Source: Amoebidium appalachense
Taxonomy: Eukaryota; Protista; Ichthyosporea
Assembly: GCA_963693365.1 (NCBI GenBank)
Contig: CAVNZM010000012.1
Span: forward strand, 5,654,889 to 5,718,888
DNA: 64,000 nt
Direction of reading: 5' to 3'
Part shown: one piece after another, positions 32,058-41,438 of the stretch
Numbering within the stretch: position 1 is the first letter of the stretch
How the letters are laid out: each line of letters starts with the position of its first letter
Notes under the pieces: model-generated
What the model was told of the DNA's origin: nothing
What the model saw: the letters and a program-made list of their open reading frames with translations, nothing else
Databases searched by the model: none
Program-made: the position numbers and the translations under genes

Positions 32058-33287
32058 TTCTTGTGCCAACGTCGCCTTTACAAGCCCAAGCACGGAGATA
32101 CTTGAGGTGGTGCCTGCTGACCCTATGATCTCAGGCACATGTGTGCTCCACAGGAGCAATTCAAAGCCTTATGAGGCAAGCCTAATAAGGCAAGTGTTCA
32201 ATGCCTAATGAGGCAAGGGTTCAAAGCCTAATAGGCAAGGGTGGGTGGGTGGGGAAAAACTTGACTACAGGCAGTAACCTAAAAAGGCCTACACTCCGTG
32301 ACTTACACCGAAACAAGCAACCTAAGGAGGGCTACCTACACTATGCTAATGAGCATTGCGACTGAGACGCACACAGCAGCCAAAAGGCTCTAAACCAAAG
32401 CATCGGCATGCAAAAATTATTGCGGGCGGGATCGCCTCATGACTATAATTCAATCAAAACGTCTACATATGCAGGAACACATTCCTCTACATACTTTCAC
32501 CAATAAAAAGCTGAACTGCAAATCGTATACCAGCATACGTACATCACCGAATTTTCGCTACCACTATCACCTGCATACCTCGCACACGGAGTCCTGGTAC
32601 TCTGTCTCCGGTGCTGTCCAATGCTCCTGCAAAGAAAAAACGTTATCAAACTAATCAATCGTTCTTGTGCCAACGTCGCCTTTACCAGCCCCAGCTAGGG
32701 GATACCTGAGGTGGTGCGTGCTGCCCTATGATCTCAGGCACCATGTGGGCTCCACTCTTGCCTTGCTGGCATGCCGGGGAAAACGGGCGACGCGACATAG
32801 CACATGGGTGCAGGGAGCAAGACCCAACGAAAACAAAAAGAAATAAAATATACCCAAAATTCGAAGCTATAGACACGCACACGACGTGTGTGTGTGTGTG
32901 TGTGTACACACGTGTGTGTGTGTGTATGTGTGTGCGTGTGTGTAGGTGTGTTTGTGTATGATGTGTGGGTGGTTTAGGTGTGTGTGTGTGTGTGTGTGTG
33001 TGTGTGTGTGTACATTAATAGGTGCAAAATTAAGACTCCCACAAGAATACAAAAAAAATACAACTCAAAATACGCGGGACGGACCATCGGCAGGTTTGCT
33101 GGCCGAAGGAAGCCAGAGCCAATAGAGACGGATGTCAAGGGCCAGCGAATGAGCAGCCACTTGGCGGCAGACACGATTCAGGCGATGGGAGGCCGAACGG
33201 CCCTTGGCCCTGTACAGCACCCAGGAGTGCAGTGAATCCAGACCCAACACGTAGCGGCGGCTGCGGGCTCAGCAGGAACGACCCAAG
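32058..33287 (-). mobile_element. Family 2 3' end: RNaseH end, (CA)n, B'1, A'2, B'2
   Basis: ORF 33065-33250 ends ...PADGPSRVF; GT tract 32886-33010; B' repeats at ~32058 and ~32662. Confidence 0.85.
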
Positions 33288-35262
33288 TGTGTCTTCGAAG
33301 GTTGTTGGCCTTTCTGGGCCCGACCGGCTTGTGTACCCGGCCCTCAAGACCGTGCCTATGGGCTGGGTGCGTTCTGTGCTTGTGGCTCAAGACGTCCATG
33401 GGCAGTTGGCTGACCGAGCCGGCATGCCTCGCATTGAGCGCCTCTGTGCAATAGTGCCGCGGCCTGTGGAGGCCACGCAGCATGCCCTTTATGTGGACGA
33501 CTGTGGCTGGGTCGGCACAGATGCCACCGCCACCAATCGTCAGCGTGAATCATATCATGGCGTCACCGGCCCGGCTGGTCTTCCCTCCAACGTCAAGAAG
33601 GATGTGGCTGCTGGTTCGTCGTCCTCTATGGTGCTGCTAGGCTTTGAAATGGATCACTCTGGGATTTTGCGCCCGTCTGGTGCTTCCTTGTGCCGTCTGG
33701 TGGCGGAAACCCAGGCCGTGTTGCGTCGTGGTGTCGTCACGCAGCTCCGTTTGCAGCAGTTGCTTGGTGGTTGGTTGTGGGCGGCACTGCTGCAGCGGCC
33801 GCTTTTGTCGGTTCTGAGTGCCGTCTACAGTTTTGTGGAGCAGCTGGGGGGTCAGGAACAGCCCCTTCCACCGCCCGTGGTGTGGGAGCGTCAGGCGATG
33901 TGTGCTTTGGCCCCGTTGATGCGTTGTGATTTGCGTTCTGGGTTTGCTAGCACCATGTTCTGCACTGATGCTTCCTTAAGGGTTGGGTGGTGCAGTGGTG
34001 TCCCGGGTGCTGCCAGCAGTGCTTCTCCGCCAAGTGCTGCCTCACTGCAACCGGCATGGCCACTACAGCCAGCTGTCTGGTCCCGTGCCCGAGCCAAGCC
34101 CGTCCGCCCCCCTGGCACCTATCCATCATTTGTCTCTCAATATTGGCCCCTTGTTTGGTATTGCTGTTTTGCTCGGATTTGAGTGTTATTTTCGTGTCAG
34201 TGAGCTGCTTATGCTCACCCGTGCGGATCTTGTTTTGCCCAACGACCCCGTTCCCCACGACATGCCACCCGGTACAGGCGGCATCCGCCTGGCCGACACC
34301 CGGTCCAAATCAGTTTGTCCCCATCACCGATCCGTCCCTGTTGGCCATCCTGTCTTTCTGGTTCCGTGGTTCCCCCCCTTCTGCGCGGCTGTTTCCTTTC
34401 TCGTACGATGTTCTGCGTGCCAAGTTCCAAGCGGCATGTGACTCCCTCGGCCTCAACGAGTATGGGTTCGATCTTCACAGTCTTCGCCATGGTGGTGCCT
34501 CAAGAGACTACGTTAGGGGTGTTTCGGTGGAGACGATTGCTCTGCGTGGTCGGTGGAGATCGCATGCCTCCCTCCGCCGGTATGTGCAGGCCGGCCAGCC
34601 TCTTGCTCTTTCTATTCGGATGCCTGCATCGCTCCTTGCCCGGGCTGCAGGGCTGCGTCAGTCACCCACGGCATGGTTCGTTCCTTCCCGTGCCAGGTAA
34701 GGAGTGGTGGAGCACACCTGTGCCTCCTTGTGAGATTGATCCACAGGCACCGGCTAATGTACCCCCTTGCTGGGGCTGGTAAAGACGATGTTGGCATAAG
34801 AATATTTAGTTTGTAAACGTGTTTTCTTTGCAGGAGAATTAGATAGCTCCCCCCGTTGGAGTGAAATTGTGTGTTGCGAGTGTGCTATAAAATTCGTAGT
34901 AGTAGTATATTGTGGGCCTAGGTGTGTTTGGTGTGTGTGCAAAGTTTCAGGCTGCTAGGATGTTTATTTAGGGAGCTGTAGCTGTTTTTATGTTCTGTGG
35001 GATATGCCATATGGATATATTGATGAGTGTGAGTTATATCTAGTCCGAAATGGGCGGCAATTGATTTGGTCTTTGTGATCTAGGGGTTTTAGTCAGTTGT
35101 GAAAAATTTTCATTGTTGATGTGCAGCAAAAATTCCATTTTGGTAGATTTCATGATTTGATAGGTTCTAAGTCATTTCTTCATATTTCCATAGGCAAAAA
35201 TGTGGGCCGCGCTATATAATGAGCTTGCGCGGCCCCAGGGAGGTCAGTTGCGGCGCTACTGA
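33288..35262 (+). mobile_element. Family 1 fragment: RT core, deletion into YR, B1 (34706-34802), A2 (34803-35262)
   Basis: ORF 33232-34182 has YVDD and CTDAS; ORF 33987-34700 has HSLRHGG; B|A junction at 34802/34803. Confidence 0.9.
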
Positions 35263-40597: not shown

Positions 40598-41438
40598 AGA
40601 ACGAGCTTCCATTGAAATTACCGGGGCCATAATTAACAACAACGAAAGATACGGGCGGAAGCACCGCAAACAGAAAGAAAAAACCGTGCGTAGGCCCTAA
40701 CCAGGCTATTTAAGCTGGAAGACCCGTGGCCCGCGGGGGGCCAGGGCCAAAACAAGATGAGCGCGATGATGAGCGGGTAGGGGAGCAACCCGCGGTAGGA
40801 GGACAAAACAGCTCCACCAAACCAAGACACCGCGGCGGCCAGAGAAGGAATGACATGGTGACGGCAGGGCTACGGCGGAGGCGGGGCTGGCGCAACACAA
40901 AAAGGGCACCAAAGACTGGAAAACCTAGCGGTGGGAAGGCACAACTGTAGGCCGAAAGGGCACAAATGGGAACACGGCCACTTAGCGAAGGTGGCTGGCT
41001 ATACAGGCGCAGCCACTGTATTGCAAAAACTTGACTGCAGGCAGTAACGACTGCAGGCAGTAACCTAAAAAGGCCTACTTACATACGCCCAACAGGCAGC
41101 CTAAGGAGGCCTACCTACACTGTGCTAAAGAGCACAGCGACTGAGACACACAGTAGCTGAAAGGCTCTAAACCAAAGCATCGGCATGCAAAAATTATTGC
41201 GGGCGGGATCGCTTCATGACTATAATCCAATCAAAAGGTCTACATATGCAGGAACACATTTGTCTACATACTTTCACCAGTAAAAACCTAAACTGCAAAT
41301 CGTATAGACCAGCATATGATGTACATCGCCGAATTTTCACGACCACTATCACCTGCATATCTCGCACACGGAGTCCTGTTACTCTGTCTCCGGTGCTGTC
41401 CAATGCTCCTGCAAAGAAAAAACGTTTACAAACTAATT

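Follow-up and report, generated by a model that had tools for sequence, protein, structure and literature searches.

In a 64,000-nucleotide stretch of the Amoebidium appalachense genome (the window, to which all coordinates refer), we have found a retroelement family, termed family 2, that keeps a gene for reverse transcriptase (RT) plus RNase H and lacks the recombinase (YR) and ORF1 genes carried by its sister, family 1. Our preferred reading, to which we give a probability of about 55%, is that family 2, present in multiple copies, is a split-repeat retroelement of the Ngaro type and uses its own RT, takes YR in trans from family 1, and either borrows the ORF1 protein or does not need it. 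What is established is the layout, the two gene losses, a remnant of the YR tail, precise ends with different flanks, and near-identical arms on both sides of the junction between the B and A repeats. The copies of family 2 in the window are dead.

The first 35,263 bases of the window form a scrambled cluster of family 1, whose copies are 92-98% alike and are themselves broken (Table 1). The arrangement of family 1 matches the Ngaro layout A1-[ORFs]-B1A2B2 as given in the available text of PMC8547959 and PMC4157794. No methyltransferase (Dam) match was obtained among 29 + 8 scanned proteins, and the lack of this domain is, according to the available text of PMC4157794, a trait separating Ngaro from PAT/DIRS elements. 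The ORF1 of family 1 has homologues in metagenome loci L001 and L008. Its YR, which shows HxxR and RY motifs and weak Phage_integrase matches, comes directly after RNase H, with ~880 bp of YR where family 2 has a spacer, a CA tract and a link. Solo A-spacer-B remnants of family 1 lie at 30413-31109, 7050-7742 and 22138-22832 in addition to the one in Table 1, and several of them sit within other family 1 copies, as may be compared with the solo AB repeats of Cafeteria. A 10.3-kb tandem duplication of the family 1 cluster at 99.5% identity (window 1-21128) is either recent or an assembly artefact. Upstream of the family 2 relative 2c, ~560 bp of AT-rich DNA (31110-31672), with no match within the window, may be the A repeat of a third family or host DNA.

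Table 1. Features of family 1 and family 2 in the window (A' and B' denote family 2 repeats).
Feature	Position	Strand	Remarks
Family 1, candidate helper	24819..31109	+	Assembled by position; A1, ORF1, RT/RNase H, YR, B1, A2, spacer, B2
Parts of family 1	A1 24819-25320; ORF1 25552-26604; RT/RNase H to 28740; YR 29442-30320; B2 end 31109
Solo repeat inserted inside the family 1 copy	28749-29440		Between RNase H and YR
Internally deleted family 1 copy	33288..35263	+	RT end, YR end, B1, part of A2; abuts copy 2b
A1' repeat, 5' end of element 2a	41049..41441	-	Likeness of 92-93% with the A' repeats of 36896-37286 and 32263-32659; over the first 34 bp, 91% with family 1 A
5' region without ORF1	40631..41048	-	418 bp; no family 1 ORF1 match; longest ATG-ORF 48 codons
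ORF2 (RT + RNase H), ATG 40630	38555..40630	-	Interrupted by stops and frameshifts; YVDD and the acidic motifs of RNase H can be read
CA tract, distal module	38212..38483	-	Interrupted core common to all three modules
Link (with ~19-codon YR tail remnant) and shortened B1'	37978..38211	-	Fusion point to second element at 37977/37978
3' module of second element	37289..37977	-	RNase H end (stop 37858), spacer, CA tract 37528-37800, link, B1' 37289-37383; same layout in X1, X2 and X8 contigs
A2' (36896-37288), spacer, B2' (36734-36821)	36734..37288	-	Split-direct-repeat 3' end; right end precise
Copy 2b, third family 2 copy, 5'-truncated by family 1	32058..33287	-	RNase H end, spacer, CA tract 32886-33011, link, B1', A2', spacer, B2'
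2c, ORF1-less 5' region of a further relative	31673..32050	+	79% alike to 40631..41048; ORF2 ATG at 32041, where 2b is inserted
Family 2 A' fragment	9713..9890	-	Separated by 22 bp from the right end of a family 1 copy; gives a second left flank, unlike the first; duplicate near 19990-20167
CA tracts of the three modules	32886-33011, 37528-37800, 38212-38483

Family 2 is represented on the minus strand by three 3' modules, which the initial annotation had described as mutually diverged, and our measurements bear this out. RNase H stops at ~33065, 37858 and 38555 are each followed by 55-70 bp, a CA tract, a link of 125-155 bp and B', with mismatches between modules amounting to 15-24% in the spacer and 8.5-10.5% in the link. 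The order B1'-A2'-B2' is found in two copies and A' at one 5' end, an arrangement that identifies split direct repeats of the Ngaro type, and ORF2, which holds RT and RNase H in one frame, is homologous to family 1 ORF2 from end to end. The only full-length stretch had been taken for one complete copy and turned out to be a chimera: at 37977/37978, with 2-3 bp of microhomology, an element cut inside B1' is joined to the RNase H end of another element. The likeness of A1' and A2' in the chimera, 92.7%, does not exceed that of other A' pairs, and B1' and B2' of its downstream part are 98.8% alike; no contig among the matches listed bridges the joint. Several frameshifts, together with three stops among 648 aligned codons, interrupt its RT/RNase H frame. 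The suggestion that family 2 repeats resemble those of family 1 only near the junction holds for A', which is alignable only over its first 50 bp, but not for B', which aligns over its entire 95 bp.

Some further arrangements concern elements inserted into or beside one another. Copy 2b is inserted 17 bp after the ORF2 start codon of 2c (window 32041-32070), where 7-12 bases resemble the B end of the element itself; look-alike sites of this kind in one element may serve as targets for another. At 9363-9969 (and 19686-20246), a family 2 A' fragment is fused to the RNase H end and YR start of family 1; the two families become neighbours by insertion and recombine with each other.

Both gene losses proposed at the outset are confirmed. 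In tblastn searches with the family 1 YR and in searches with a profile of the YRs of nine relatives, matches fell in family 1 (iE 1e-17 to 1e-29 with the profile), and neither search gave a match in 31110-33287 or 36700-41450. What family 2 retains of YR is its last ~19 codons, overlapping B': from ~40 bp before the link ends into the beginning of B', the sequence aligns to the family 1 YR end (p 0.002-0.05). Neither the spacer nor the remainder of the link has significant homology to YR (alignment p 0.3-0.75), and survival of the tail next to DNA unlike YR indicates that the gene was deleted and the gap filled. ORF1 is absent from the short interval between A' (41049) and the start codon of ORF2, and the corresponding region of 2c is likewise ORF1-less and free of codon-phase bias; the 3' end of 2c lies outside the window. 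A hidden small ORF in the 5' region was considered and rejected, as comparison with the related sequence at 31673-32040 revealed no codon-phase bias (p 0.69).

The loss of YR is the derived state, since YR follows RNase H, starting 22-307 bp after it, in 12 of the 14 relatives that have 300+ bp past the RNase H motif. These relatives come from 22 metagenome loci coding for RT/RNase H proteins with a likeness of 27-37%. Left out of the count were L009, L020 and L021, which have YR matches but in which the RNase H motif was not located, and L008, L012, L016 and L022, which end too early or match too little; L018, with no YR match in ~590 bp after RNase H, is uninformative because its long frame stays open until the contig stops. 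In a tree of 26 sequences, none of them a named Ngaro reference, families 1 and 2 are sisters (100/99) among YR-bearing relatives. Given the missing YR, family 2 is best regarded as a derivative that works like a Ngaro rather than as an autonomous member of the group. The proteins of the two families had no Pfam RVT_1 match, family 1 RT/RNase H had no relative above 32% (6 matches among 7993 scored proteins), and the family 2 RT core had no close relative among 31 candidates. No close locus was confirmed among 42 metagenome-contig stretches or among 39 viral-contig stretches, and a profile of the relatives matched retroviral RT structures weakly (best E 0.006).

Family 2 is found outside the window too. 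Parts of the stretch are contained in 13 of the 24 listed sequencing runs (four organism labels, three named studies). Run X1 has exact window pieces and may be the source of the window, and X2 and X8 come from one study; X11 and other runs with a small share were left out of the evidence, and summed contig depth was not taken as copy number. Contigs aligned to 38486-41448 number 325 in X1, 317 in X2 and 301 in X8. They cover all 30 bins at a likeness ranging from 99+ to <90%, and few internal deletions occur among those listed. At the outer end of A', 6, 3 and 4 of the listed contigs (X1, X2 and X8) depart with an agreement of only 0.55-0.57; these are different flanks, some of them being the B1' junction.

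An indication of a shared recombinase is found at the junction of B and A, where both families break at the same core. The last 34 bp of B are identical to family 1 at 32 of 34 positions and the first 34 bp of A at 31 of 34 (91-94%), whereas synonymous sites of ORF2 are near saturation between the families (dS 1.35, pS 0.63, 37% identity). Preservation of the junction arms despite this divergence fits a YR borrowed in trans, although it is also predicted if YR was lost recently. Both the window and contigs under three organism labels support the dependence on a recombinase acting in trans that the initial annotation had supposed, as they do the absence of ORF1. A hairpin at the junction was tried as a further feature and rejected, as five stretches of 101-108 nt folded as DNA gave z values of -0.27 to +0.37, no better than shuffles.

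Whether RT has remained under selection bears on the part of our reading that gives family 2 its own enzyme. The ORF2s of the two families have 69% DNA identity (dN 0.22 at the dS given above; 72% protein identity in the RT core), and the between-family dN/dS of 0.17 (p 1.6e-69) reveals purifying selection on RT. For the period after YR loss, the dN/dS check proposed in the initial annotation yields hints only. ORF2 holds 29 of the 40 listed variants, 26 of them in aligned codons, and these divide into 9 synonymous and 17 non-synonymous changes, a neutral-like pattern (p 0.37); the 12 variants listed for the RNase H end comprise 3 synonymous and 9 non-synonymous ones. At 14 of the 17 amino-acid-changing sites among the variants listed, other contigs carry the family 1 residue, and other contigs show indels at several frameshift sites of the window copy, which indicates that the decay of the window copy is private and that most of the family lies nearer to family 1. 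Neither the window copies nor the listed contigs showed an intact family 2 ORF2. Among the three YR-less modules, pairwise dN/dS is 0.32-0.39 (each p >0.08), as against 0.31, 0.70 and 0.38 for family 1 pairs, and pooled changes on the three-copy tree are synonymous in 9 of 21 cases (p 0.086). The non-coding parts of these modules differ by 11-15% and the RNase H non-synonymous sites by 3-8% (Fisher p 0.055, 0.012, 0.092), in three pairwise tests that share copies, and thus are not independent, and in which slippage near the CA tract may inflate the non-coding change. These small, non-independent tests (p 0.01-0.09) hint that RT might have been selected after YR was gone. Of the semi-autonomy first proposed, the absence of YR and ORF1 and the reliance on a helper are supported, and the use of its own RT is plausible, being hinted at by this selection.

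It is appropriate to ask whether family 2 might instead be an ordinary passenger that lost YR and ORF1 shortly before it spread, that borrows everything including RT from family 1, and whose RT has merely escaped erosion. We consider this rather unlikely. All window copies are broken, the variant sites look neutral, and the RT branch of family 2 is long (0.40, compared with 0.017 for family 1). Moreover, family 2 copies are only 7-15% apart, a small distance next to the dS separating them from family 1, and the dN/dS between the families may hence date from before the loss. There is also precedent for such movement, since the gene-less split-repeat element TOC1 moves (available text of PMC9940879) and the DIRS-1 RT works in trans (available text of PMC7192593). 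Against such a passenger, RNase H has diverged less in the YR-less modules than the non-coding sequence next to it, and X1, X2 and X8 contigs cover all bins of the stretch with few internal deletions among those listed. It is further countered by the spacer and the larger part of the link, which have ceased to resemble YR.

A different possibility is that a YR-bearing family 2 master resides elsewhere in the genome and that the YR-less copies are its deletion derivatives, mobilized by the YR of family 2 itself, comparable to the ORF1-less Ngaro 1b and 2b of Cafeteria. The absence of YR rests on the window and the contig matches listed, so a rare YR-bearing copy could escape, and 2c is a further relative whose 3' end falls outside the window. 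We nevertheless judge such a master improbable. All three window modules (3/3) are without YR, and of the 22 loose ends listed (four runs, 80% likeness) none lies at the RNase H stop and none is linked to YR. In the segment 37802-38210, 5 of 28 listed pieces cross the RNase H stop and continue through 31+ letters of spacer (2 from X1, 2 from X2, 1 from X8), and among the matches listed the link runs into GT repeats in 4/4 runs (3, 3, 3 and 1 contigs). The window and the contigs under three organism labels support the view that YR absence is a trait of the family. A differing spacer occurs in one X2 contig, and one contig departs from the link into AT-rich DNA.

The ends of the elements speak to transposition itself. 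In the window, right ends at 32058 and 36734 and left ends at 41441 and 9890 are precise, have unrelated flanks and are without target duplication. The 13 B ends and 10 A starts listed are likewise precise and have varied flanks, with an overlap of ~1-3 bases. Spread by segmental duplication alone, with shared flanks, is not what these ends indicate. That a single deletion was multiplied by local segmental duplication or assembly error without any transposition is very improbable, because although the cluster is scrambled, contains the 10.3-kb tandem repeat and includes a fused family 2 copy whose fusion no listed contig bridges, the non-coding parts of the modules differ by 9-24%, the precise ends have unrelated flanks, and exact window pieces occur in X1 contigs.

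If family 2 moves as our preferred reading proposes, a mechanism modelled on DIRS elements would apply. Its transcript would be reverse-transcribed, likely by its own RT, the B and A ends would be rebuilt into a B|A junction, and a YR, likely that of family 1 acting in trans, would recombine this junction with a target sharing only 1-3 bases. The circle model for DIRS, the idea of a trinucleotide junction and the action of the DIRS-1 RT in trans are all presented in the available text of PMC7192593, where YR specificity is described as untested. Integration of split-repeat YR retrotransposons has so far been largely a model, and the ~34 bp on either side of the B|A junction mark a likely recombination site for which one recombinase would have two natural substrates. 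An element that keeps RT and drops YR would, in addition, distinguish Ngaro proteins acting in cis from shared ones. Furthermore, annotation in which a YR domain is mandatory would overlook RT-only elements or classify them wrongly.

Partial autonomy is familiar from other retroelements. BARE-2 of barley is a partly autonomous LTR element that keeps its integrase and borrows Gag from a sister family. Family 2 would likewise take a protein from a sister family, but in family 2 it is the integration enzyme itself that is missing. TOC1 reportedly lacks intact genes, whereas an RT/RNase H gene of 2 kb, its motifs conserved, is retained in family 2. TOC1 of Chlamydomonas reinhardtii, a non-autonomous DIRS element, otherwise resembles family 2 in its split repeats, the lack of its own YR and a presumed helper (available text of PMC9940879). 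The SIRE element of Trypanosoma cruzi, corresponding to the A2-B2 part of VIPER, is also a split-repeat, YR-less and presumably helper-dependent element; according to the available text of PMC6681497 it is ~0.4 kb long and gene-less, whereas family 2 retains an RT/RNase H gene, broken in the window copies. The closest parallel is with the Ngaro elements of Cafeteria burkhardae, which, in the available text of PMC8547959, share the A1-[ORFs]-B1A2B2 layout, the ORF1, RT-RNase H and YR order seen in family 1, solo AB repeats, and multi-copy ORF1-less types (1b and 2b). As described there, types 1b and 2b have lost ORF1 only, whereas family 2 is also without YR and has a CA tract in its place; and family 2 is a diverged sister family rather than the deletion form of a near-identical master. 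Split-repeat elements that lack ORF1 or all genes are therefore known, and what is new relative to the literature searched is the proposed half-dependent design in which RT is kept and YR is not. No RT-keeping, YR-less DIRS/Ngaro family was found in the available text of that literature, which includes PMC3783388, PMC9210276, PMC12477816, PMC4157794 and PMC10294476, although Repbase, subscription papers and the supplements of PMC12477816 and PMC9210276 may hold one.

Two unrelated metagenomic loci from a distant branch, L003 and L004, may constitute a second RT-only lineage. They form one lineage (L003:166-2718, L004:1-3274) on its own long branch (100/100, with P0001-P0003), and carry an open 732-codon ORF with a dN/dS of 0.14 (p 2e-21). 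No YR match lies downstream of RNase H in the 384 bp of L003 and 304 bp of L004 that precede the contig ends, so a YR further out is possible; this downstream stretch holds a partial repeat of the RNase H end. The 800 bp upstream of RT in L004 contain no ORF of 150 codons and no YR match, and in L004 short direct repeats are present on both sides. Viewed together with family 2, these loci suggest the tentative, still doubtful idea that RT-only Ngaro lineages are stable and recurring, with at least two origins (family 2 and L003/L004), ORF1 and YR having been dropped, RT/RNase H being held under purifying selection, and a sister's YR being shared through the junction arms. If this idea were true, families 1 and 2 would offer a natural pair with which to map the Ngaro recombination site and to show a cis preference of RT but not of YR.

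Mobile elements such as mini-me and DINE-1 carry microsatellites, and family 2 resembles them in that a simple repeat is inherited inside the element. An interrupted CA core has 6 matches in the window, all within the three modules, and this confinement indicates that the tract is inherited with the element. The further proposal that family 2 seeds microsatellites as it spreads found no support within the window, as the core is present in 0/7 CA/TG runs outside the elements (41.4-64 kb) and family 2 flanks occur on none of these seven. Thus, in contrast to microsatellite-carrying mobile elements, family 2 was not seen to account for host CA tracts. The host is rich in such tracts, which makes capture from the host as likely as seeding. 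As cargo, the CA tract closed the deletion a single time and was inherited from then on, and it probably plays no part in movement. L1 and Alu are treated as microsatellite sources in the available text of PMC3812793.

Other features of the window lie beyond the family 2 region and mark the DNA as eukaryotic. At 41939-46366, a pair of 660-bp repeats in tandem, 91% alike, precedes a broken Gypsy-like pol (RVT_1, E 4e-33). At 53875-55140, an exon for a choline/carnitine O-acyltransferase (E 1e-22) is located amid long G/C runs and CA tracts, and this gene piece is intron-rich.
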